From the IMG/VR virus record IMGVR_UViG_2695420521_000005, positions 1 to 43,752 of that record: a stretch of 43,752 nt of DNA. One strand, given 5' to 3'. This document shows positions 2,746 to 42,800 of this stretch, in pieces (position 1 is the first letter of the stretch; each line of letters begins with the position of its first letter). This DNA comes from a virus (Duplodnaviria > Heunggongvirae > Uroviricota > Caudoviricetes). Made by a program: the position numbers and the translations under genes. A model generated the notes under the pieces. The model ran no database searches, was not told the DNA's origin, and saw nothing but the letters and a program-made list of their open reading frames with translations.

Positions 2746-3426
2746 TCATCGCCATTGCTCCCCAAATACAAAACCAATTTCAGCCAGTGCCTCGTCCATT
2801 TTTTCGATGAACTCCGGCACCATCTCGTCAAAACCCGCCATGTACTTTTCATCCCGCTCAACCACGACATAATGCAGTCCTTCACGCTTCATACGCGGGT
2901 CATAGTTGGCAAAGTACCAGGCATCTTTTCGCGTCACCCACATGCTGTACTGCACCTGGGCCATGTAAGCCGACTTTATGGCCTCGAAACCACCGAGCCG
3001 GAACTTCATGAAATCTCGGGAGGTAAACGGGCATTTCAGCTCAAGGCCATTGCCGTCACTGCATAAACCATCGGGAGAGCAGGCGGTGCGCATACTTTCG
3101 TCGCGATAGATGATCGGGGATTCAGTAACATTCACGCCGGAAGTGAATTCAAACAGGGTTCTGGCGTCGTTCTCGTACTGTTTTCCCCAGGCCAGCGCCT
3201 TAGCATTAACTTCCGGAGCCACACCGGTGCAAACCTCAGCCAGCAGGGTGTGGAAGTAGGACATTTTCATGTCAGGCCACTTCTTTCCTGAGCGGGGCTT
3301 TGCTATCACGTTGTGAACTTCTGAAGCGGTGATGACGCCGAGCCGTAATTTGTGCCATGCATCATCCCCCTGTTCGACAGCTCTCACGTCGATCCCGGTA
3401 CGCTGCAGGATAATGTCCGGTGTCAT
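2746..3426 (-). CDS. exo: lambda-type 5'-3' exonuclease (Red alpha)
   Basis: 226-aa product [40 protein letters not shown]... is near-identical to lambda Exo as I recall it; same length; followed by bet and gam. Confidence 0.95.
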
Positions 3427-4208
3427 GCTGCCACCTTCTGCTCAGTGGCTTTCTGTTTCAGGAATCCAAGAGCTTTCACTGCTTCGGCTTGTGTCAGTTC
3501 TGACGATGCGCGAATGTCGCGGCGAAATATCTGGGAACAGAGCGGCAATAAGTCGTCATCCCATGTTTTATCCAGGGCGATCAGCAGAGTGTTAATCTCC
3601 TGCATGGTTTCATCGTTAACCGGAGTGATGTCGCGTTCCGGCTGACGTTCTGCAGTGTATGCAGTATTTTCGACAATGCGCTCGGCTTCATCCTTGTCAT
3701 AGATACCAGCAAATCCGAAGGCCAGACGGGCACACTGAATCATGGCTTTATGCCGTAACATCCGTTTGGGATGCGACTGCCACGGTCCGGTGATTTCTCT
3801 GCCTTCGCGGGTTTTGAATGGTTCGCGGCGGCATTCATCCATCCACTCGGTAACGCAGATCGGATGATTACGGTCCTTGCGGTAAATCCGGCATGTACAG
3901 GATTCATTGTCCTGCTCAAAGTCCATGCCATCAAACTGCTGGTTTTCATTGATGATGCGGGACCAGCCATCAACGCCCACCACCGGAACGATGCCGTTCT
4001 GCTTATCAGGGAAGGCGTAAATTTCTTTCGTCCACGGATTAAGGCCGTACTGGTTGGCGACGATCAACAATGCGATGAACTGCGCATCGCTGGCATCACC
4101 TTTAAATGCCGTCTGGCGAAGAGTGGTGATCAGTTCCTGTGGGTCGACAGAATCCATGCCGACACGTTCAGCCAGCTTCCCAGCCAGCGTTGCGAGTGCT
4201 GTACTCAT
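3423..4208 (-). CDS. bet: single-strand annealing protein Bet (Red beta)
   Basis: 261-aa product [66 protein letters not shown]... matches lambda Bet from memory; 4-nt overlap with exo. Confidence 0.95.
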
Positions 4209-4213
4209 CCGTT

Positions 4214-4510
4214 TTATACCTCTGAATCAATATCAACCTGATGGTGAGCAATGGTTTCAACCATGTACCGGATGTGTTCTGCCATGCGCTCCTGAAACTC
4301 AACATCGTCATCAAATGCACGGGTAATGGCTTTTTTGCTGGCCCCGTGGCGTTGCAAATGATCGATGCAGAGTGATTCAAACAGGTGCTGTGGAAGACCT
4401 TTTTCCATGTCGTCTGCCAGTTCTGCCTCTTTCTCTTCACGGGCAATCTGCTGGTAGTGACGCGCCCAGCTCTGAGCCTCAAGACGATCCTGAATGTAAT
4501 AAGCGTTCAT
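4214..4510 (-). CDS. gam: RecBCD inhibitor Gam (short GamS-length form)
   Basis: 98-aa product [60 protein letters not shown]... matches lambda GamS; the frame is open further upstream but that part does not match the lambda long-form N-terminus as I recall it. Confidence 0.9.
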
Positions 4511-4585
4511 GGCTGAACTCCTGAAAATGGCTGTGAAAATATCGCCCGCGAAATGCCAGGCTGATTAGGAAAACAGGAAAGGGGA

Positions 4586-4996
4586 TTAGTGATTCAGGCC
4601 GTTGCCTCGTCCGTCGAGAAAAACTTCCACGAGCAAATCACGGGTATAAGTGCGCTCGATGCCGCGATGCAGATATAGCCGTCCGCGTAAATTAGCTGAT
4701 GCTGTCCAGGTACCATCTTTGTGTTTGACCAGCATTCCTGGCATGACCGCACCGCGATTAACGGTCTGCGTTCCGTAATGTTGATGAACCATAAAAACTC
4801 CTGCCCGTAAGCTGGGCTGCTGAACATATAAAGACTTCTGCGCGTATTCAGGCGGTGGATGGCCGCCGGTTGTCATAACTAAGCCGCCTCGTTGAAGCGA
4901 CTGAGGTATGAAATGTTGAGTTAATTTCAGCTGGTCACACCGACGTTCACGCGTCCGCTTCACCCCTCGCACTTCCCGGAGCCTGCTGAAATTCAA
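4586..4996 (-). CDS. hypothetical protein in the N-gene position
   Basis: ORF between gam and the putative pL/oL region. As drawn it starts at a TTG and would have an Arg-rich N-terminus (VRGVKRTRERRCDQLK) reminiscent of N-type arginine-rich motifs; the first ATG is internal (about 4876), giving 96 aa. No kil or cIII homologues are visible between gam and this ORF. Confidence 0.4.
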   Translation of the reverse strand: MNFSRLREVRGVKRTRERRCDQLKLTQHFIPQSLQRGGLVMTTGGHPPPEYAQKSLYVQQPSLRAGVFMVHQHYGTQTVNRGAVMPGMLVKHKDGTWTASANLRGRLYLHRGIERTYTRDLLVEVFLDGRGNGLNH

Positions 4997-5271: not shown

Positions 5272-5778
5272 TCATTTTAATCTATCAAGGAGTGACTCTC
5301 TTTCCTTCTTCTCTGATTCTCTTCGGTTTAATAACGCTTTAAACTCTTGAAGCTCAACCATTATTTTATGAACGAATACACTGGTATAGAGAGAAATAAA
5401 GAGTAATCCACCTGAAATTTTTAAGACCCTGAAGAGTAGGGCTTGATCATTTGTGCTTGCTATTAACCCCAAGATTACAAACAAAGTTGAAAATACATAG
5501 AAAGCTAATAATAAAACCAATTTCAGTCTCTTGGATTTGACTATTGGCACTAATCGCCTAACCTCACTAGGGGTTAAAGACGAGTGGTCATTGGCCTCAT
5601 TTGCCTTAAAAATGGCTTGTATACAATATGATAATGGCAATTGCATGAGTCCAACCACAGCCCACGGAGCTGTTAGGACAACACCCGGTGTAATATAGCC
5701 CAATGCTGACTTGAACAAAAAGTAACCAGCAACATAGAAGACCAACATACCAATAAGGTGGATGATGTTCGATTTCAT
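5272..5778 (-). CDS. small integral membrane protein (about 4 TM helices) in the rexB position
   Basis: 168 aa with four hydrophobic segments (IIHLIGMLVFYVAGYFLF; VVLTAPWAVVGLMQLPLSYCIQAIF; LKLVLLLAFYVFSTLFVILGLIAS; GGLLFISLYTSVFV) and a charged C-terminal tail. Strong RBS (AGGAGG) 6 nt before the ATG; only 21 bp after the stop of the upstream 340-aa gene; visibly AT-rich. Confidence 0.75.
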   Translation of the reverse strand: MKSNIIHLIGMLVFYVAGYFLFKSALGYITPGVVLTAPWAVVGLMQLPLSYCIQAIFKANEANDHSSLTPSEVRRLVPIVKSKRLKLVLLLAFYVFSTLFVILGLIASTNDQALLFRVLKISGGLLFISLYTSVFVHKIMVELQEFKALLNRRESEKKERESLLDRLK

Positions 5779-5799
5779 TATCGCCCTCCTTTTGGTAGG

Positions 5800-6822
5800 T
5801 TATTTTGCAACCAATTCTCCGGCATCAAGTTTTGAGAACAGCCACTTATGCATTTTTAAGAATAAATCATTTTCATCAATAATGCCATTGTTATGTTCAA
5901 CGCTAATTTTTCCGGATAATTTTATCTCTTTTCCCGTTATTTCCCCACCGCCTTGAAGTTTGATGCTAATATCATCCTCATCTAGATGTCGTAGTGAGGT
6001 AGCAATACTGTCTATAACAGCTTGACCGCTATCATTTGTTTTTCTGAAGTATGTAATCTCGAGGCTTACTTGTAAATTGGCCTCATCTAATGAATCTTTA
6101 ATGTTTATATCATTTGCCCAGTTATCGCCAAAAAATGCTTTTAGTAGCGCACCTCCTTTCCCTATTGGGCGGTATTTTATTGTCTTCACCGAACCATTTG
6201 AAAAGGAGGGTGTTTGGTTCTCTGAATTTTTAACTTCTGAAGTAATGGGTAATCCACCAATTTTTATGCTCTTGGCTGGTGCTTTCTCCATTTTTTTCAT
6301 CGTTTCTTCGGATGGCTTATCTTGAAGCATTAACACAGATTCTTTTTCATCTGTGAATGTATTAATTAGCCAATTCAAATGCGCCTCAAGCTCCCTTGCT
6401 CGAAGCGATGTGGATTGAACGATCATGACATGGTTGTTTAGTACACCAAAATATAAAATTGAATCTACAAACTCTCTTTTTTTGTCACTACGTTTATCTC
6501 CATCAATAATTATATCATTAGACGTGATGGAGTTAATGTCATAAAATTTAACATTATCACTAAGCTCTAATAGAGACTGGCTTTTGTCTTTTTCAAATAA
6601 AACCAGTTGCCCAAAAAGTATAGTTTTGTATGTGTCGCTTTTATTTAAGAAACGATACCCCGAATTTTCATCTGAAGGTGTTATTTTTTCTTGTCTACTA
6701 AGTACTTTTTCTGCAACGCCGCCCTCACCTATAATACTAAGTAGTATGTTTTGTAATGATGATTTGCTGTGTGGGATTACTGCTTTTTTATAATGAACGA
6801 CTTTTTGTCTGTTATCTTTCAT
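5800..6822 (-). CDS. hypothetical cytoplasmic protein in the rexA position
   Basis: 340-aa ORF immediately downstream of cI on the same strand; Lys/Asp/Glu/Ser-rich, no catalytic motif recognised; visibly AT-rich; forms an operon with the downstream membrane protein. Confidence 0.75.
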   Translation of the reverse strand: MKDNRQKVVHYKKAVIPHSKSSLQNILLSIIGEGGVAEKVLSRQEKITPSDENSGYRFLNKSDTYKTILFGQLVLFEKDKSQSLLELSDNVKFYDINSITSNDIIIDGDKRSDKKREFVDSILYFGVLNNHVMIVQSTSLRARELEAHLNWLINTFTDEKESVLMLQDKPSEETMKKMEKAPAKSIKIGGLPITSEVKNSENQTPSFSNGSVKTIKYRPIGKGGALLKAFFGDNWANDINIKDSLDEANLQVSLEITYFRKTNDSGQAVIDSIATSLRHLDEDDISIKLQGGGEITGKEIKLSGKISVEHNNGIIDENDLFLKMHKWLFSKLDAGELVAK

Positions 6823-6944: not shown

Positions 6945-7637
6945 CTACCCATGCTTCCTGTAGGTCTGCGGCATGCTCCCAATAACTTTCCCGAAGATAA
7001 ACACCCGGTTCATCTCGTCTTTCTCGATAGGATCCCACGGTGAGTAGCTCTTGTTATCAGAGATAACCAGCAGTTTATCCTTCATCATTTGCAGGCGCTT
7101 TACATGGGCGGTGTCGTCGTACAGAAATGCATAGATACCATCACCGTCGAAAGATTTAACCGTGATATCAACGAACAGCAGATCACCTGGTTCGATCGTT
7201 CCTGACATGCTGTCACCACGCACGTTAATGATGCGGATATTTTCTGCCTTCCTGCCATCGAACATGTGACGAGCATCGTCAAACGAGTACTCAACCGAGC
7301 GTAGAACTTCTACAAACTCACGGTTGATGACTCCCGGCCCGGCACTGACTTCTATATCAAGAACGTCAATTTTGAAGTATTTGGAATGGCTGACAGCAGG
7401 CTTCCCTGATTGTTGACCGTCATTTCTCATCGGGCCTATGCCTGATGAGAGCCATTCTGTTCGAACACCCAATGCATTAGCTATTTCAACAATTTTTGTT
7501 GAGCCGCGCGCGTTGCCGCTTGTCAGTCTCCAGATTGTGGGTTGAGCTACGCCAGACGCCTTTGCAAGAGCGCCTTGAGACATTCCAGATTGTTCCATCG
7601 CTAGGTTTAAGCGATCAGCAAGAGTTTCTTTTTTCAT
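6945..7637 (-). CDS. cI: CI-type prophage repressor (HTH plus S24 LexA-like autopeptidase domain)
   Basis: N-terminal HTH (MSQGALAKASGVAQPTIWRL) and C-terminal S24 signature (GDSM serine, VKRL lysine); divergent from cro. The first ATG is at 7637 with no SD, consistent with a leaderless pRM-type transcript; the ORF track extends to a TTG at 7673. Sequence is not lambda CI, so the immunity specificity is different. Confidence 0.85.
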   Translation of the reverse strand: MKKETLADRLNLAMEQSGMSQGALAKASGVAQPTIWRLTSGNARGSTKIVEIANALGVRTEWLSSGIGPMRNDGQQSGKPAVSHSKYFKIDVLDIEVSAGPGVINREFVEVLRSVEYSFDDARHMFDGRKAENIRIINVRGDSMSGTIEPGDLLFVDITVKSFDGDGIYAFLYDDTAHVKRLQMMKDKLLVISDNKSYSPWDPIEKDEMNRVFIFGKVIGSMPQTYRKHG

Positions 7638-7747
7638 AAGTTTTAATTTATACGCTTGCGTATTGATGGTCAAAACACGTTTTGCTATTGCTTGGATTAA
7701 TACGCATTGCTATTATTCATTCATTGCAATACCAATAGGAATTGATA
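7638..7747. promoter_or_regulatory. putative oR / pR-pRM divergent operator-promoter region
   Basis: 110-bp AT-rich cI-cro intergenic region with the palindrome ATACGCttGCGTAT (7650-7663), TTGCTATTG at 7682-7690, TTGCTATT at 7707-7714 and the palindromic ATTGCAAT at about 7723-7730. Confidence 0.5.
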
Positions 7748-17569: not shown

Positions 17570-17945
17570 GCTGGTTATCGCTGCTTTTCTCGTTACTGTC
17601 ATCGGTTCTTTCATCTGGTCTGCCAACCACTACTACAGCAAATATCAGCACGAAAAGAAACGTGCTGATGAGGCTGTACAAAATGCCAAATCGGCAACTG
17701 TCATTACCAATAACGTCCTGCAATCACTGCAAATCGTCAATACAGTTCTGGAGGCTAGCCAGCATGCAAAACAGCAGATTGCACTGGAGTCACAGAGAAC
17801 CCAGACAGATATCAAAACGGCTGTTGCGAATGATGATTGCGCTGCCCGTCCTGTTCCTGCTCGTGCAGCTGAACGGCTGCGCCGGTACGCGGACAGTTTA
17901 CGTACCAGTTCCAGCGGTACCGCTACCGGCGAATCTGACCACTGA
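17553..17945 (+). CDS. Rz: i-spanin Rz
   Basis: 130 aa with an N-terminal TM helix (LVIAAFLVTVIGSFIWSANHYY) and a coiled-coil-like periplasmic region; overlaps the end of R. Confidence 0.7.
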   Translation: MKLSYKLVIAAFLVTVIGSFIWSANHYYSKYQHEKKRADEAVQNAKSATVITNNVLQSLQIVNTVLEASQHAKQQIALESQRTQTDIKTAVANDDCAARPVPARAAERLRRYADSLRTSSSGTATGESDH

Positions 17946-18087: not shown

Positions 18088-18405
18088 AGCAGTAAAGCGG
18101 ACGGACCGTGGCAAGTGGCGCCAATGCAGCAGTCATGATGCTGCCCCGAATACCCAAAGTTGCGGGTAGCCAGTCTCAGGTAAAAAGCTGAGGGCGTACT
18201 GGTGAGGGGTAACGGGAAGAAGCGCACCGGTACTCCAGGCTGGTCGCCAGTCAGCTTCCGGTTAGTGGTGAGGGATTCACGAGATACCCCTGACACATGG
18301 CCTCAAGGGAATGAGCGCAGCTACTGCGAGAGTGTGGTTGGCATTCACTTAGTGCTTGCGATAATGCTTTTAGTTACAATCACTTCATCGATAAATGAGG
18401 TGAAG

Positions 18406-18945
18406 ATGAACGCAGATTATATAGCTTACGAATCATTGGTTGCCACTAGAAATACAGCAGAATGGGCTTTTTGGTCAATGGTAGGAACGTGGTTTTCAGG
18501 CATTGCAACCTTTATGGCAGTATGCCTGACTTTATATATTTCTAACCGTCGACCTCGACCGAAGTTAAGAGGAACAGTATCGCTTGGGGGCATCACAGGC
18601 CAAAATGTGAGCACGTTTGGAGTTACGATCAACATTGCAAATGTTGGCATTCAAACCGCAACTATAACTTCAGTAACATGGACGTTCGGTACAAAAAACT
18701 CACTACTTCAGATTCTGGGGGGTGGGTTTGGTGACGATTTACCAAAAAAAATTGAGCATGGCGAATATGCATTTTTCTTTATTCAAAATGATACTAATGG
18801 CGACTGGGCCAGAGATATGAAAAATAAGATATGGGAACAGGGCGGCAACGTTCGCAAATTAATGTTGCTTGTGCACCTTGCTACCGGCGATACGATGAAA
18901 ATTAAGCCAGCCAAAAATGTAATAAAAATGATCGAAAAATCATAA
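18406..18945 (+). CDS. hypothetical membrane-anchored protein (post-lysis moron)
   Basis: About 179 aa from the ATG at 18406 (SD GAGGTG); one N-terminal TM helix (WAFWSMVGTWFSGIATFMAVCLTLYI) and a Gly/Thr-rich C-terminal domain; visibly AT-rich. Confidence 0.55.
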   Translation: MNADYIAYESLVATRNTAEWAFWSMVGTWFSGIATFMAVCLTLYISNRRPRPKLRGTVSLGGITGQNVSTFGVTINIANVGIQTATITSVTWTFGTKNSLLQILGGGFGDDLPKKIEHGEYAFFFIQNDTNGDWARDMKNKIWEQGGNVRKLMLLVHLATGDTMKIKPAKNVIKMIEKS

Positions 18946-19052
18946 CATCCACAGGTGTATCACCATAGACAGCCTCCATTCTAATCTCACCATCACAGGA
19001 TCTCGTAGAGTGTCTGTGATGGTGCTATATCCTGTAAAGTAAAGGGAGACCA

Positions 19053-19340
19053 ATGATGACATCTTTAACCGTTGCGGTATTAGCTTTAATAGTTGCAATC
19101 TGGCATGAGATAAACCGATTTCCAGCAACCGGGAAGAGCTTACTGTCTTTACAGCAAGAAGTTAGGGAGCTGAGGGATGAAAATGAAAGATTAGCCTCTG
19201 AAGTAGATTCTTTAAAGGATGAGTTACTTGAAATTTCAAATCAGATAGATCGAATTAAAGACCCTGAATATTATGCATTGCTTGATGCAGGAGATGGAGT
19301 GGGTCTTTATGAAATAGAAAAGTCAAGAGGTCAAATTTAA
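19053..19340 (+). CDS. small membrane protein with coiled-coil (post-lysis moron)
   Basis: 95 aa; N-terminal TM helix (LTVAVLALIVAIW) then a heptad-like segment (LQQEVRELRDENERLASEVDSLKDELLEISNQIDRI); followed by a terminator hairpin. Confidence 0.5.
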   Translation: MMTSLTVAVLALIVAIWHEINRFPATGKSLLSLQQEVRELRDENERLASEVDSLKDELLEISNQIDRIKDPEYYALLDAGDGVGLYEIEKSRGQI

Positions 19341-19344
19341 TAAC

Positions 19345-19370
19345 CGCCTTTTTGGCGGTTTATTATTCCG
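19345..19370. terminator. hairpin terminator between convergent genes
   Basis: AACCGCC-ttttt-GGCGGTT followed by TATTATT, directly after the 19053-19340 stop and facing the convergent 19405-19731 gene. Confidence 0.5.
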
Positions 19371-19404
19371 TCATCATGGGCAGGCCCATCGTAACTGCAG
19401 TATC

Positions 19405-19731
19405 TTATATACACCAATGACATCTCTGGATGGTTGGCAGTCCTGTTAGTTGGCCTGCGGTGGACTCGGCCTCGTCAAGCGTAAGAACACATACTTTTTG
19501 GTATCGGCCAGTAGTAAAGCCGGCGTGATTTTTTGGGCTGATTAACGGGTTGATTGATTTGCATGAGGCTCGATGAATCCGCGTAAATCTGGCATCATTT
19601 TTTCTGCCTTTCCCGCTGGCCGACTTAAGCAGATTAATAACGAATCCATCGGAATGGGTTGCTAGCCAACTCTTGTACATCGCTTCGCTATCAACATCCT
19701 GTATTTCACTGCTGAAAATAGTAATGCCCAT
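19405..19731 (-). CDS. hypothetical protein (convergent moron near cos, in the bor region)
   Basis: 108-aa ORF with a C-terminal CHWC; no family recognised; not Bor-like. Confidence 0.4.
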   Translation of the reverse strand: MGITIFSSEIQDVDSEAMYKSWLATHSDGFVINLLKSASGKGRKNDARFTRIHRASCKSINPLISPKNHAGFTTGRYQKVCVLTLDEAESTAGQLTGLPTIQRCHWCI

Positions 19732-19879
19732 ATTTTTTCCGTATATGACTAACTGATATGAATATGTATCAGGACTATTTTATGGCAAAACCAGAGTAGA
19801 AGGCCATTGGGGTCCGGAGTGTTGATGTGAACAAATTAACCCCCCCCTTTAAGTGTAATTGATATGTATTATCATTTTC

Positions 19880-20098
19880 GGGTCCTTTCCGGCGATCCAG
19901 AACGTTACGGGGCGGAAGGCGCGCGGGTTTTCGCTATTTATGAAAATTTTCCGGTTTAAGGCGTTTCCGTTCTTCTTCGCCGTAACCTAATGTTTTTATT
20001 TAAAACCCCCCCTGAAAAGAAAGGAAACGACAGGTGCTGAAAACGGGCTTTTTAGCCTCTGTCGTTTCCTTTCTCTGTTTTTGTCCGTGGAATGAACA
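19880..20098 (+). other. cos: cos region (cosN plus cosB terminase-binding region) with a variant cosN core
   Basis: AACGTTACG-GGGCGGAAGGCG-CGCGGGTTTTCGCTATTTATGAAAATTTTCCGGTTTAAGGCGTTTCCG... aligns to the lambda cos / left-end leader from memory; the 12-nt core at 19910-19921 reads GGGCGGAAGGCG where I recall lambda GGGCGGCGACCT. Confidence 0.8.
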
Positions 20099-20618
20099 AT
20101 GGAAGTCAACAAAAAGCAGCTGGCTGACATTTTCGGTGCGAGTATCCGTACCATTCAGAACTGGCAGGAGCAGGGAATGCCCGTTCTGCGAGGTGGTGGG
20201 AAGGGTAATGAGGTGCTTTATGACTCTGCCGCCGCCATAAAATGGTATGCCGAAAGGGATGCTGAAATTGAGAACGAAAAGCTGCGCCGGGAAGTTGAAG
20301 AACTGCGGCAGGCCAGCGAGACAGATCTCCAGCCAGGGACTATTGAGTACGAACGCCATCGACTTACGCGTGCGCAGGCCGACGCACAGGAGCTGAAAAA
20401 TGCCAGAGACTCCGCTGAAGTGGTGGAAACCGCATTCTGTACTTTCGTGCTGTCGCGGATCGCAGGTGAAATTGCCAGTATTCTCGACGGGATCCCCCTG
20501 TCGGTGCAGCGGCGTTTTCCGGAACTGGAAAACCGACATGTTGATTTCCTGAAACGGGATATCATCAAAGCCATGAACAAAGCAGCCGCGCTGGATGAAC
20601 TGATACCGGGGTTGCTGA

Positions 20619-20644
<26 letters not shown>
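20099..20644 (+). CDS. nu1: terminase small subunit
   Basis: 181 aa, MEVNKKQLADIFGASIRTIQNWQEQGMPVLRGGGKGNEVLYDSAAAIKWYAERDAEIENEKLRR..., near-identical to lambda Nu1 from memory. Confidence 0.95.
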
Positions 20645-24325
<3,681 letters not shown>

Positions 24326-35392: not shown

Positions 35393-38300
35393 ATGGGTAA
35401 AGGCAGCAGTAAGGGGCATACCCCGCGTGAAGCGAAGGACAACCTGAAATCAACGCAGTTGCTGAGTGTGATTGATGCCATTAGTGAAGGCCCGATTGAA
35501 GGTCCGGTGGATGGGTTAAAAAGCGTGCTGCTGAACAGTACGCCGGTGCTGGACAGTGAGGGGAATACCAATATATCCGGCGTCACGGTGGTGTTCCGGG
35601 CAGGTGAGCAGGAGCAGACACCGCCTGAGGGGTTTGAATCCTCCGGCTCCGAGACGGTGCTGGGTACGGAAGTGAAATACGACACGCCGATCATCCGGAC
35701 TATCACGTCTGCAAACATCGACCGTCTGCGTTTTACCTTCGGTGTGCAGGCTCTGGTGGAAACCACCTCAAAAGGGGACCGGAATCCATCGGAAGTCCGC
35801 CTGCTGGTTCAGATACAACGTAACGGTGGCTGGGTGACGGAAAAAGACATCACCATTAAGGGCAAAACCACCTCGCAGTATCTGGCATCGGTGGTGGTGG
35901 ATAACCTGCCGCCGCGCCCGTTCAATATCCGGATGCGCAGGATGACACCGGACAGCACCACAGACCAGCTGCAGAACAAAACGCTCTGGTCGTCATACAC
36001 CGAAATCATCGATGTGAAACAGTGCTACCCGAACACGGCACTGGTTGGCGTACAGGTGGACTCAGAGCAGTTCGGCAGTCAGCAGGTGAGCCGTAATTAT
36101 CATCTTCGCGGGCGCATTCTGCAGGTGCCGTCGAACTATAACCCGCAGACGCGGCAATACAGCGGTATATGGGACGGAACGTTTAAGCCAGCATACAGCA
36201 ACAACATGGCCTGGTGTCTGTGGGATATGCTGACCCATCCGCGCTACGGCATGGGGAAACGTCTTGGTGCAGCAGATGTGGATAAATGGGCGCTGTATGT
36301 CATCGGCCAGAATTGCGACCAGTCGGTGCCGGACGGCTCTGGCGGCACGGAGCCGCGCATCACCTGTAACGCTTACCTGACCACACAGCGCAAGGCGTGG
36401 GATGTGCTCAGTGATTTCTGCTCGGCGATGCGCTGTATGCCAGTATGGAACGGGCAGACGTTGACGTTCGTGCAGGACCGACCGTCGGATAAGGTGTGGA
36501 CCTATAACCGCAGTAATGTGGTGATGCCGGATGATGGCGCGCCGTTCCGCTACAGCTTCAGCGCCCTGAAGGACCGCCATAATGCCGTTGAGGTGAACTG
36601 GATTGACCCGAACAACGGTTGGGAGACAGCGACAGAGCTTGTGGAGGACACACAGGCCATTGCCCGTTACGGTCGTAACGTCACGAAGATGGATGCCTTT
36701 GGCTGTACCAGCCGTGGGCAGGCGCACCGCGCCGGGCTGTGGCTGATTAAAACGGAACTGCTGGAAACGCAGACTGTGGATTTCAGCGTGGGGGCCGAAG
36801 GCCTTCGCCATGTGCCGGGCGATGTTATTGAAATCTGCGATGATGACTATGCGGGGATCAGCACCGGTGGTCGTGTGCTGGCGGTGAACAGCCAGACCCG
36901 GACGCTGACGCTCGACCGTGAAATCACGCTGCCATCCTCCGGCACCACGCTGATAAGCCTGGTTGACGGTCAGGGTAATCCGGTCAGCGTGGAGGTTCAG
37001 TCCGTCACCGACGGCGTGAAGGTGAAAGTGAGCCGTGTTCCTGACGGCGTTGCAGAATACAGCGTGTGGGGGCTGAAGCTACCGACGTTGCGCCAGCGCC
37101 TGTTCCGCTGCGTGAGTATCCGTGAGAACGACGACGGCACGTATGCCATCACCGCCGTGCAGCATGTACCGGAAAAAGAAGCCATCGTGGATAACGGGGC
37201 GCACTTTGACGGCGACCAGAGCGGCACGGTGAATGGTGTCACGCCGCCAGCGGTGCAGCACCTGACCGCCGAAGTCACCGCAGACAGCGGGGAATATCAG
37301 GTGCTGGCGCGCTGGGACACGCCGAAGGTGGTGAAGGGCGTGAGCTTCCTGCTTCGTCTGACCGTGACAGCAGAAGACGGCAGTGAGCGGCTGGTCAGCA
37401 CAGCCCGGACGACGGAAACCACATACCGCTTCAGGCAGCTGGCGCTGGGGCGTTACACGCTGACAGTCCGGGCGGTAAATGCCCGGGGACAGCAGGGCGA
37501 TCCGGCGTCGGTATCGTTCCGGATTGCCGCACCGGCAGCGCCGTCACAGATTGAGCTGACGCCGGGCTATTTTCAGATAACCGCCACGCCGCATCTTGCG
37601 GTTTATGATCCGACGGTACAGTTTGAGTTCTGGTTTTCTGAAACGAAGATTTCAGATGTCTCACAGGTGGACAAATCTGCCCGCTATCTTGGTACGGCAC
37701 TGTACTGGGTAGCCTCCGGCCAGAATATTAAGCCGGGCCATGATTATTACTTTTATGTTCGCAGTGTGAATACCGTTGGTAAATCGGCATTCGTGGAGGC
37801 TGTCGGCCAGCCGGGTAATAATCCTGAAGAGTATCTCAATTTTTTTGAAGGGAAAATAAACAGCACCCTGCTGGGGCAGGAGCTGAATGATCGTATTAAT
37901 GCCTCTGCATTGCGCAGTGAAGTTGAGCAACTGGAGGATGAGGTCAATCAGCGACTGGAGAGTGATATTGCCGGGGTGACCCAAAAAATCGGGGAAACTG
38001 AAAACAGCCTCACGCAGCTGGTTGCTAAAAAAAATGATGAGCAGTCACTGGCCATATCCCAGGTGAGTCAGAAAGTGGACAACGTCAGTAGCGAACTCAC
38101 ACAAACGGTCAGTCAGAGTAATGAGGAGAATGCACGCCAGATTGCGCAGGTTCGTCAGTATGTGGATGAAAAAAGCAGTGAAATCATCTCGACGACAGAC
38201 AAAAAACTGGGCGAGCAGGAAGCAACAATCCAGCAGATACAAAAGGTTCAGACAGACACCAGTAATAACCTGAACAGTATGTGGGCCGTGAAACTGCAGC

Positions 38301-39094
38301 AGATGCAGGATGGTCGCCTTTACATTGCGGGTATCGGTGCCGGTATTGAGAATACCCCTGACGGTATGCAGAGTCAGGTGCTGCTGGCGGCAGACAGGAT
38401 TGCGTTCATTAATCCGGAGAACGGTAACACCACTCCAGCACTGGTCACGCAGGGGGGACAGACGTTTATCAATGAAGCGCTGATTAAGACCCTTATTGCT
38501 CCCACAATTACCAGTGGTGGCAATCCTCCTGCATTTTCCCTGACATCAGACGGAAAGCTGACCGCTAAAAATGCGGATATCAGTGGCAGTGTGAATGCGA
38601 ACTCAGGGACGCTCAACAACGTCACGATAAATGAGAACTGTCAGATTAAGGGGAAACTGTCCGCCAACCAGATTGAAGGCGATATTGTCAAAACGGTCAG
38701 CAAGTCTTTCCCCCGCACGAGCACTTATGCCAGCGGCACCATTACGGTCACGATTAGTGATGATCAGAAGTTTGACCGACAGGTCATGATCCCGGCTCTG
38801 CTGTTTAAAGGAAGCAGGAAGGAAAATTATGGCAGTAATAATCAACAGTCTTATGTTTATTCTGTATGCCGTTTGCAGGTAACGAAAAACGGGACAGAAA
38901 TTTTTAACCAGTCTACAACGGATGCTCCGGCGGTTTTTTCTTCCGTTATTGATATGCCTGCGGGGCAGGGAACGTTGACGTTAAAGTTTACGGTCTCTTC
39001 TTCAATGGTCAATAACTGGACACCGACAACCAGTATCAGCGATTTGCTTGTTGTGGTGATGAAGAAATCCACCGCAGGTATCACGATTAGCTGA
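35393..39094 (+). CDS. J: central tail fibre / host-specificity protein J with a divergent C-terminal receptor-binding region
   Basis: 1233 aa. The N-terminal roughly 770 residues are lambda gpJ-like ([37 protein letters not shown]...). It is then about 100 aa longer than lambda J, with a Gln/Glu/Ser-rich coiled-coil-like segment, and the last roughly 150 aa differ from the lambda LamB-binding domain. Confidence 0.95.
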
Positions 39095-39161: not shown

Positions 39162-39761
39162 ATGCGTAAAGTTTGTGCAGCCATGTTGTCCGCAGCCATC
39201 TGTCTGGCCGTATCCGGTGCGCCTGCATGGGCGTCTGAGCAGCAGGCCACGCTGAGCGCGGGGTATCTTCATGCCCGGACGAACGCTCCCGGCAGCGATA
39301 ATCTTAACGGGATTAACGTGAAATACCGTTATGAATTTACGGACACGCTGGGGCTGGTGACGTCATTCAGCTATGCAGGAGACAGGAATCGCCAGCTTAC
39401 CCGTTACAGCGATACCCGCTGGCATGAAGATTCTGTGCGTAACCGCTGGTTCAGCGTCATGGCGGGACCCTCTGTGCGCGTGAATGAATGGTTCAGCGCG
39501 TATACGATGGCGGGTGTGGCTTACAGCCGTGTGTCGACTTTCTCCGGGGATTATCTCCGCGTAACTGACAACAAGGGAAAAACGCACGACGTGCTGACCG
39601 GAAGTGATGACGCTCGCCACAGTAACACCTCTATGGCGTGGGGAGCTGGCGTGCAGTTTAACCCGACCGAATCCGTGGCCGTTGATGTCGCTTATGAAGG
39701 CTCCGGCAGTGGCGACTGGCGCACTGACGGGTTCATCGTGGGTGTTGGTTATAAATTCTGA
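39162..39761 (+). CDS. lom: outer-membrane beta-barrel protein Lom (Ail/Lom family)
   Basis: 199 aa with signal peptide [24 protein letters not shown]; near-identical to lambda Lom from memory; ends ...GVGYKF. Confidence 0.95.
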
Positions 39762-39781
39762 TTAGTAGTACAGCGTGATGA

Positions 39782-39809
39782 AAGCCCGCCGGTTCAGGTG
39801 GGCTTTTTT
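39782..39809 (+). terminator. Rho-independent terminator after lom
   Basis: AAGCCCGCC-ggttca-GGTGGGCTT stem (one G-U pair) followed by TTTTTT. Confidence 0.6.
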
Positions 39810-39820
39810 GTGGGGTGAAT

Positions 39821-42800
39821 ATGACGGTTAAGATTTCAGGTGTACTGAAAGATGGAGCAGGCAAACCGGTACAAAACTGTACCATTCAGCTAAAGGCCAG
39901 ACGCAACAGCACCACGGTGGTGGTGAACACGGTGGCCTCAGAAAATCCGGATGAAGCCGGGCGTTACAGCATGGACGTTGAGTATGGCCAGTACAGCGTC
40001 ACCCTGCTGGTTGAAGGTTTTCCGCCTTCGCATGCCGGGACCATCACCGTGTATGAAGATTCTCAACCCGGTACGCTGAATGATTTTCTCGGCGCAATGA
40101 CGGAGGATGATGCCCGTCCGGAGGCACTGCGTCGTTTTGAACTGATGGTGGAAGAGGTGGCGCGTAACGCGTCCGTGGTGGCACAGAACACGGCAGCCGC
40201 AAAGAAGTCAGCCAGTGATGCCAGCACATCTGCCAGTGAGGCGGCAACCCGTGCGACTGATGCTGCAGATTCAGCACGTGCAGCCAGCACGTCAGCCGGA
40301 CAGGCCGCGTCGTCGGCTCAGTCAGCGTCTTCCAGCGCAGGAACGGCATCAACAAAGGCCACTGAAGCCTCAAAAAGTGCTGCCGCTGCAGAGTCCTCAA
40401 AAAGCGCGGCGGCTACCAGTGCCGGTGCGGCGAAAACGTCAGAAACGAATGCGGCAGCGTCAGAACAATCAGCCGCCACTTCTGCATCCACCGCGACCAC
40501 GAAAGCGTCAGAAGCTGCCACCTCAGCCAGGGATGCGTCGGCTTCAAAAGAGGCGGCAAAATCATCAGAAACGAACGCATCATCAAGCGCCAGTAGTGCA
40601 GCTTCCTCGGCAACGGCGGCAGGAAATTCCGCGAAGGCGGCAAAGACGTCTGAGACAAACGCCAGGTCTTCTGAAACGGCAGCAGCACAGAGTGCCTCAG
40701 CTGCGGCAGGCTCAAAAACAGCGGCTGCATCATCTGCCAGTGCCGCGTCAACAAGTGCCGGGCAGGCCTCAGCCAGTGCCACCGCTGCCGGAAAGTCGGC
40801 AGAAAGTGCCGCATCGTCTGCTTCAACAGCCACAACGAAGGCTGGCGAAGCCACTGAACAGGCCAGTGCAGCAGCGAGGTCTGCTTCCGCAGCGAAGACA
40901 TCCGAGACGAACGCGAAAGCGTCGGAAACCAGCGCAGAATCCTCAAAAACGGCTGCCGCATCGTCCGCCAGTTCGGCGGCGTCATCGGCCTCATCGGCGT
41001 CTGCTTCAAAAGATGAGGCGACCAGACAAGCGTCCGCAGCGAAGGGCAGCGCCACGACAGCATCCACGAAGGCGACAGAGGCAGCTGGCAGTGCGACGGC
41101 GGCAGCACAGAGCAAAAGTACGGCGGAATCCGCGGCAACGCGCGCCGAGACAGCGGCAAAACGGGCAGAGGATATTGCATCCGCCGTGGCGCTTGAGGAT
41201 GCAAGTACGACGAAAAAGGGGATAGTACAGCTCAGCAGTGCGACCAACAGCACGTCTGAAACGCTGGCGGCAACGCCAAAGGCAGTAAAATCAGCCTATG
41301 ACAATGCAGAGAAACGTCTGCAGAAAGACCAGAACGGCGCTGATATACCCGATAAGGGACGCTTCCTGAACAACATTAACGCGGTCAGTAAAACAGACTT
41401 TGCTGATAAGCGTGGTATGCGTTATGTGCGGGTTAACGCTCCTGCAGGTGCAACATCTGGAAAATATTACCCTGTTGTTGTTATGCGTTCTGCTGGCTCA
41501 GTAAGCGAACTGGCATCAAGGGTCATTATCACCACGGCAACGCGAACCGCAGGCGATCCGATGAATAACTGCGAGTTTAACGGATTTGTTATGCCTGGTG
41601 GCTGGACTGACAGGGGGCGTTATGCTTATGGAATGTTCTGGCAATATCAAAACAATGAACGAGCCATCCACTCAATAATGATGAGTAATAAGGGCGATGA
41701 TTTGCGCTCTGTGTTCTATGTTGATGGCGCTGCTTTCCCTGTTTTTGCGTTTATCGAAGATGGCCTGTCAATATCCGCACCTGGTGCTGATCTCGTTGTT
41801 AATGATACGACCTATAAGTTTGGGGCAACAAATCCAGCGACTGAATGTATCGCGGCGGACGTTATCCTTGATTTTAAGAGTGGGCGTGGTTTTTATGAGT
41901 CTCATTCGTTAATCGTTAACGATAACTTGTCGTGCAAAAAACTTTTTGCCACAGACGAAATTGTAGCGCGTGGTGGTAATCAGATTCGAATGATAGGTGG
42001 GGAGTATGGTGCATTATGGCGTAATGATGGCGCTAAAACTTACCTGCTGCTTACCAATCAAGGTGATGTTTATGGTGGCTGGAATACATTAAGACCGTTT
42101 GCTATTGATAACGCAACCGGCGAACTGGTTATTGGAACCAAACTGTCCGCAAGTCTGAACGGTAATGCATTAACAGCAACAAAGCTGCAAACGCCAAGAC
42201 TGGTTTCTGGTGTTGAGTTTGATGGTTCCAAAGATATTACTTTAACCGCCGCGCATGTGGCTGCTTTTGCCAGAAGGGCAACGGATACGTATGCCGATGC
42301 GGATGGGGGCGTTCCATGGAATGCCGAATCAGGCGCTTACAATGTCACCCGCTCTGGCGACAGCTATATTCTGGTTAACTTCTATACCGGAGTCGGAAGT
42401 TGCCGGACCCTGCAGATGAAGGCACATTACAGAAATGGAGGTCTGTTCTACCGTTCCTCAAGAGATGGCTATGGTTTTGAGGAAGACTGGGCAGAAGTTT
42501 ATACCTCGAAAAATCTTCCACCAGAAAGCTACCCAGTCGGCGCACCAATCCCGTGGCCATCAGATACCGTTCCGTCTGGCTATGCCCTGATGCAGGGGCA
42601 GACTTTTGACAAATCTGCATACCCGAAACTTGCAGCCGCTTATCCGTCAGGCGTGATCCCTGATATGCGTGGCTGGACGATTAAGGGCAAACCTGCCAGT
42701 GGTCGGGCCGTATTGTCTCAGGAACAGGACGGCATTAAATCGCACACCCACAGCGCCAGCGCATCCAGTACGGATTTGGGGACGAAAACCACATCGTCGT

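Follow-up and report, generated by a model that had tools for sequence, protein, structure and literature searches.

Natural differences from lambda in cosN's right half (bp 7-12 of the 12-bp cohesive-end sequence) occur commonly in lambda-like phages, at positions 9 and 12 in N15 and phiD326 and at positions 8, 9 and 11 in Gifsy-1 (Feiss et al. 2015, PMC4669245). Another natural right-half variant is the cosN of mEp213/LLS, GGGCGGCGCGCT (PMC12315714). Mutations at bp 7-12 have minimal effects and do not measurably affect cos cleavage, while the symmetric left-half changes have severe effects: with G2C the yield falls ten-fold, whereas C11G has no phenotype (PMC4669245). cosQ and the CG pairs flanking the nicks are conserved among lambda-like phages (PMC4669245). 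The explanation given is that TerL is anchored by TerS at R3, and that its nicking of the bottom strand then depends little on the local sequence (PMC4669245). A later account describes the TerL nuclease as not highly sequence-specific and reliant on anchoring at cosB (Feiss 2022, PMC9026076).

Published tests cover single mutations and the two-change allele of N15 (PMC4669245). This allele (GGGCGGCGTCCG, the first 12 bases of N15) is used by lambda TerL as efficiently as the lambda cosN in experiments, with equal yields of lambda terminase on the two sites (PMC4669245, Table 4). Neither the lambda nor the N15 terminase has cosN specificity (PMC4669245). According to the same paper, mismatched lambda and N15 ends are viable but lower-yielding.

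The window analyzed here is the whole stretch of 43,752 nucleotides of a Caudoviricetes virus record in IMG/VR (IMGVR_UViG_2695420521_000005). The original prediction described a lambda-like cos/terminase region with a variant cosN core. We aligned the cos region of the window with those of lambda, PhiR47_2, PhiR46_1 and YDC107_1. Positions 19880-20075 very probably constitute a complete, functional lambda-type cos site (cosQ-cosN-cosB) with a minority natural cohesive-end allele. Its parts are as follows.

19880..19886, + strand: cosQ, GGGTCCT, the packaging-termination signal (direct reading; lambda alignment)
19887..19907, + strand: cosQ-cosN spacer, differing from lambda at -7, -9, -10, -11 and -18
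19908..19923, no strand assigned: cosN in the Feiss definition (12 bp plus two flanking bp per side), CG / GGGCGGAAGGCG / CG (direct reading and lambda alignment)
19910..19915, + strand: left half, bp 1-6, GGGCGG (lambda alignment), the half in which mutations are deleterious (PMC4669245)
19916..19921, + strand: right half, bp 7-12, AAGGCG (lambda CGACCT), the variant allele, with C11 kept (sequence, alignment and scans)
19959..20075, + strand: cosB, with R3, R2 and R1 the same as in lambda (alignment)
19959-19974, + strand: R3, lambda bp 50-65 (R3 coordinates from PMC9026076)
20020-20034, + strand: R2 core, placed by identity to the lambda sequence
20059-20075, + strand: R1 core, placed by identity to the lambda sequence

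The anatomy of the site can be read directly. Positions 19900-19935 run gaacgttacg, then gggcggaaggcg, then cgcgggttttcgct. The 12-mer at 19910-19921, GGGCGGAAGGCG, occurs once in the window (0 expected in shuffles). Its lambda counterpart is GGGCGGCGACCT, as read in PV340536 and in phage Perceval, whose record begins at the cohesive end. The original prediction had quoted the lambda sequence correctly, and its tally of five differences in the last six positions is exact: comparison with PV340536 and Perceval places them at bp 7, 8, 9, 10 and 12, leaving bp 1-6 and C11 unchanged. Conservation of the left half (bp 1-5/6, GGGCG[G]), as described in PMC4669245 and in PMC9303873 citing Vahanian 2017, holds at 19910-19915. 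CG dinucleotides lie beside both predicted nicks, at 19908-19909 and 19922-19923. With the cosN definition and nick positions of PMC9026076, homology to lambda would put the top-strand nick at 19909/19910 and the bottom-strand nick at 19921/19922.

By hand count, 8 of the 16 bp of cosN in the window obey two-fold rotational symmetry, against 10 of 16 in lambda. The symmetric pairs are -2/14, -1/13, 2/11 and 4/9, and the nick-adjacent pairs are retained; relative to lambda, pairs 3/10 and 6/7 are lost and pair 4/9 is gained. Position 12, which adjoins the bottom-strand nick, is altered, by the same T12G change as in N15.

On the left, cosQ precedes the top-strand nick by 23 bp, the same distance as in lambda, and is kept in every tabulated left flank, variant-type and lambda-type alike. 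The claim that the junction resembles that of lambda held for the immediate flanks, TTACG and CGCGGGTTTTCGCTATTTATGAAAATTTTCCGG, which are identical in the alignment. Further out, the left flank also has changes at -7, -9, -10 and -11 (CCAGAACGTTACG in the window versus CCGACAGGTTACG in lambda), which had gone unmentioned; at -18 the window has C and lambda T. Both allele classes vary in the spacer between cosQ and cosN, for which 118 loci gave 21 haplotypes, and the spacer variants are distributed independently of the 12-mer.

On the right, bp 13-70 are unchanged relative to lambda. There are no indels from cosN to R3, and cosB has the R3-I1-R2-R1 architecture with lambda spacing. The scattered substitutions reported in the cosB leader are real, but they spare R3, R2 and R1 and are confined to the spacers and the I1 region, a predicted IHF site in which they give a run of seven C. 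This leader variant also occurs in Perceval and PhiR47_2, there beside a lambda-type 12-mer (99.4% identity from bp 13 on). The C7 run lies at 20001-20007, where lambda has ATACCCTC and Perceval and PhiR47_2 have ACACCCCC; a C8 run lies at 19840-19847, just left of cosQ. Homopolymers of this kind are prone to slippage.

Compared with lambda cos, then, the window shares cosQ and its 23-bp spacing, bp 1-6, C11, the flanking CG pairs, bp 13-70 and R3/R2/R1, and differs by the right-half bases, two fewer symmetric bp, and a few substitutions in the cosQ-cosN and cosB spacers. N15 and phiD326 are likewise natural variants in the right half only, with T12G in common with the window, but they have two changes to the window's five; in N15, moreover, TerS has a specificity of its own and cosB is simple, with one site, where the window has a tripartite, lambda-type cosB. 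Gifsy-1 is changed at bp 11, which the window keeps, and mEp213/LLS is changed at other positions; both have fewer than five changes. In sequence comparison, the window allele, with five of six right-half bases replaced, is more divergent than any of these published variants.

The variant recurs, and this is a direct observation. Two 52-bp queries that differ in the 12-mer alone were run against 5,426 complete E. coli genomes; 195 carried the variant and 4,221 the lambda type. With a 66-bp query that had the variant at its centre, 215 complete E. coli genomes gave matches, 134 of them across at least 80% of the query length. Hosts of the variant genomes include humans, mice, cattle, dog, chicken and pig, and there is one sediment isolate. 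The variant is also present in 77 IMG/VR contigs. Variant and lambda-type cos sites co-occur in genomes, several of the top variant matches giving two places. An exact 25-mer searched against one genome per species (GTDB) found Escherichia sp. E1V33 alone, with a pattern too strict for relatives in other genera. A literature search for the exact 12-mer gave an unrelated plant paper as its sole match.

Two deposited phages, PhiR46_1 (PV340565) and YDC107_1 (CP025712), have the exact 12-mer of the window together with a lambda-type tripartite cosB, Nu1 and A, and not the simple cosB of N15. Both belong to the N15-like linear plasmid prophages, with telL/telR, ParA/ParB and a large primase, whereas the window is an integrating lambdoid with an integrase, and their left flank differs from that of the window at four positions. 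The PhiR46_1 record gives ECOR13 in its host field, and PMC13190303, in whose text the name PhiR46 does not appear, describes the use of the PhiR panel, a set of lambda-related temperate phages (Brenes & Laub 2025), in plaque assays. From the host field and this use of the panel we reasonably infer that PhiR46_1 is of virion origin.

As judged from the sequences collected, GGGCGGAAGGCG is a minority natural cosN allele, and not a lesion, an artefact or a private mutation. The original prediction counted it as a refutation if this exact 12-mer were the conserved cos of a known lambdoid group with demonstrated packaging. Recurrence and conservation agree with the first part; packaging with the exact allele would be expected.

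The allele is also independent of its surroundings. A scan in which the 12-mer was left free (ACG-N12-CGCGGGTTTTCGCTATTTATG) returned 120 loci; combined with phage loci fetched earlier, it yielded 113 lambda-type sites, 9 variant sites and 2 single-base variants of the lambda type. Among all loci collected, the variant adjoins 28 distinct 34-nt left flanks. One of these is the commonest lambda-type left flank, counted 11 times beside the variant and 45 times beside the lambda allele. Three classes of R3 region and cosB accompany the variant, each of which is also found with the lambda allele.

The allele is independent of the terminase sequence as well. Residues that track the allele were sought in gpA (40 variant-linked and 47 lambda-linked proteins) and in Nu1 (45 and 55), and none was found in either. 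Four gpA sequences, and likewise four Nu1 sequences, are found in identical form beside either allele. At one locus, L163, the variant cosN is accompanied by a gpA identical to lambda's own; this identity comes from protein alignment, as an ungapped DNA comparison of the locus with lambda is uninformative past bp 139 (1-bp indel).

Per-site diversity in the unbiased N12 scan was 0.003 for bp 1-6, 0.00 for bp 11, about 0.11 for bp 7-10 and 12, and 0.12 for the cosQ-cosN spacer. Across the 118 loci, bp 7-12 fall into 3 haplotypes and the neighbouring 20-bp spacer into 21. Rarer right-half alleles with a lambda-type right flank include CAGGCG (4 loci), CAGACG (3), and CTGACG, GAGCGT, AGACCT, TGACCT and CGACCG (1 each). 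These came from loose 15-base patterns with many chance matches in GC-rich contigs, and alleles were counted only if the lambda-type right flank followed. Since rare intermediate alleles exist, the window's allele is one end of a series and not an isolated jump. The collection also contains another, fairly common cohesive-end allele, GGGCGGCAGCGG, at 41 loci (e.g. among L263-L341) with the right flank CGCGGG-ATTTGGCGCATTTTTG, and GGGCGGCGCGCA at 9 loci with yet another flank. These loci probably represent other lambda-like packaging groups.

The genes of the window were surveyed by tblastn with lambda proteins, supplemented with Pfam and PHROGs.

10-1107, - strand: int (tblastn, lambda protein)
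2749-4604, - strand: exo, bet and gam (tblastn, lambda proteins)
6945-7673, - strand: cI-like repressor (Pfam/PHROGs)
8632-10241: O and P (tblastn, lambda proteins)
14858-15547: Q (Pfam/PHROGs)
16789-17106: holin (Pfam/PHROGs)
17093-17566: R, endolysin (tblastn, lambda protein)
17553-17945: spanin (Pfam/PHROGs)
20099..20644, + strand: Nu1 (TerS), 181 aa, 98.3% protein identity to lambda (V46A, A75T, L132I)
20619..22544, + strand: A (TerL), 641 aa, 99.5% protein identity to lambda (E285D, T450I, I459V)
20099 to 43746: Nu1, A, W, B, C, D, E, FI, FII, Z, U, V, G, T, H, M, L, K, I, J, lom, stf and tfa, all full length (tblastn)

Nu1 and A adjoin the site as intact, full-length lambda-type terS and terL genes, with Nu1 starting at about bp 190, as in lambda; they are as close to lambda as the original prediction had said. 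The loss or truncation of excision, lysis or morphogenesis genes that is expected of a defective prophage was not seen among the listed genes of the window, all of which are full length. The window is essentially a complete lambda-like prophage without sign of decay.

Packaging from this site would most likely proceed as follows. Nu1 dimers and IHF would bind at R3, R2 and R1 of cosB and position gpA over cosN. A gpA anchored beside R3 would nick the bottom strand between bp 12 and 13 (19921/19922), largely independently of the sequence of bp 7-12; changes there would be tolerated because the cosB-anchored terminase nicks that side whatever the sequence. A second gpA would nick the top strand between -1 and 1 (19909/19910), for which the left half GGGCG(G) and the flanking CG would be required. 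The product would be a pair of mutually complementary 12-nt 5' overhangs of non-lambda sequence. Their predicted self-annealing energy is -18.6 kcal/mol, compared to -19.0 kcal/mol for lambda ends (DNA parameters). Because the overhangs are complementary and as stable as those of lambda, injected DNA should circularize normally. The variant cosN is almost certainly functional, and we would expect cutting at the predicted positions and a normal yield.

The original prediction left a choice between a different cohesive end used by a lambda-type terminase and a mutated cosN in a cryptic prophage unable to cut or package its own DNA. A dead site might be suspected since five of six bases are off the reference, including the one beside the bottom-strand nick, and some variant loci are degraded, such as L143 with its truncated portal gene. 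However, none of the changes touches a feature of known importance, be it bp 1-6, the flanking CG, cosQ, R3 or the spacings. The same 6-mer also persists beside 28 left flanks and three cosB classes, in 195 genomes and in 77 viral contigs, a pattern that random decay would not give. The packaging, head, tail and lysis genes of the window are all intact, from Nu1 to tfa at full length and with the lysis cassette, Q, repressor, O and P present, and the allele is found in a phage deposited with a propagation host (PhiR46_1). We consider inactivation highly improbable. The choice falls instead on the different cohesive end, as the allele recurs beside lambda-identical terminases and its changes all lie in the tolerant bp 7-12 (PMC4669245). 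That the variant arose as an error of sequencing or assembly at the end of a phage genome is next to impossible: cos junctions are sometimes misassembled from sequenced virion DNA, but this one is internal to a prophage, and hundreds of independent complete genomes and contigs have it in identical form.

A different cohesive end could be matched by a co-adapted terminase, with the specificity of gpA or Nu1 shifted to suit the variant cosN. In favour of such a shift, the window's gpA and Nu1 are each three residues from lambda. Yet no residue segregates with the allele in the protein sets described above, and the lambda and N15 terminases, as noted, have no cosN specificity (PMC4669245). Identical gpA and Nu1 proteins, including lambda's own gpA, occur with both alleles, and co-adaptation is therefore contradicted; we give it scarcely any chance. 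A further reading accepts that the allele is functional but holds that it is not neutral. Variant and lambda-type ends would form separate annealing classes, and chromosomes cut from mixed-cos concatemers would circularize poorly, leading to frequency-dependent selection and partial isolation of lambdoid lineages. Variant and lambda-type ends are predicted to pair at bp 1-6 only, at about -9.5 kcal/mol, compared to -19 for matched ends and about -15 for lambda with N15. The co-residence of both cos types in genomes and the small number of right-half haplotypes relative to the adjoining spacer also point this way. The idea is nevertheless speculative and purely inferential: six linked bp are expected to yield few haplotypes anyway, intermediate alleles exist, and the excess of the lambda type could stem from ancestry and sampling. 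We consider it unlikely. If true, it would amount to a post-packaging barrier between co-resident lambdoid phages and would explain why a region tolerant of single mutations has few discrete haplotypes; as a simple obstacle to exchange among lambdoid phages, it would matter for cos-based vectors and for transduction between phages of this kind.

The reading we prefer, a functional site with a minority allele, bears on annotation, as a cohesive end other than GGGCGGCGACCT is no ground for calling a lambda-like prophage defective. This second allele is present in about 4% of complete E. coli genomes, alongside terminases that cannot be told apart from lambda's. It also takes the natural evidence that cosN is functionally asymmetric from two or three changes to five of the six right-half bases.

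One of the degraded loci, L143 (IMGVR_UViG_2623620496_000002), has two cos sites in the same orientation, at 239 and 12504 (- strand), 12.3 kb apart. After the variant-type site come Nu1, A, W and a portal gene cut short at aa 279; before the lambda-type site lie capsid genes distantly E-like (42%) and D-like (38%). The locus looks like a degraded variant-cos prophage beside a second cos-bearing element.

Several accessory genes of the window differ from those of lambda or have matches to defence models. Between P and the nin/Q region (10392-12871, + strand) are two adjacent genes, the first encoding a 548-aa protein whose domains are Pua-like (PF24405) and calcineurin-like metallophosphoesterase, and the second a 278-aa HAD hydrolase (PADLOC 'Hydrolase' model PDLC03008, E=4e-57). 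The pair may be a prophage-borne defence cassette. A 267-aa DUF3800 protein matching the PADLOC candidate system PDC-M04A (E=8e-35) is encoded at 15769-16572 (- strand), on the opposite strand between Q and holin. Directly downstream of the cI-like repressor, at the place of rexA/rexB in lambda, are genes for 340-aa and 168-aa proteins (5272-6822, - strand), which had no Pfam or PADLOC match and matched only PHROGs 3482 and 16807, both of unknown function; these may be an exclusion or defence pair. From spanin to cos (18202-19731), ORFs of 247 aa (+), 95 aa (+) and 108 aa (-) replace the bor and lambdap78/79 segment of lambda; no family was assigned to these three, save a weak match of the 247-aa ORF to a PHROG of unknown function.

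At the other end of the virion module, identity to lambda is 51% in the C-terminal third of J and 45% in lom; these and the side tail fibre genes are far more divergent than the rest of the module (35393-39088 and 39162-43171). The divergence of the J end, lom and the side tail fibres suggests a different receptor specificity.
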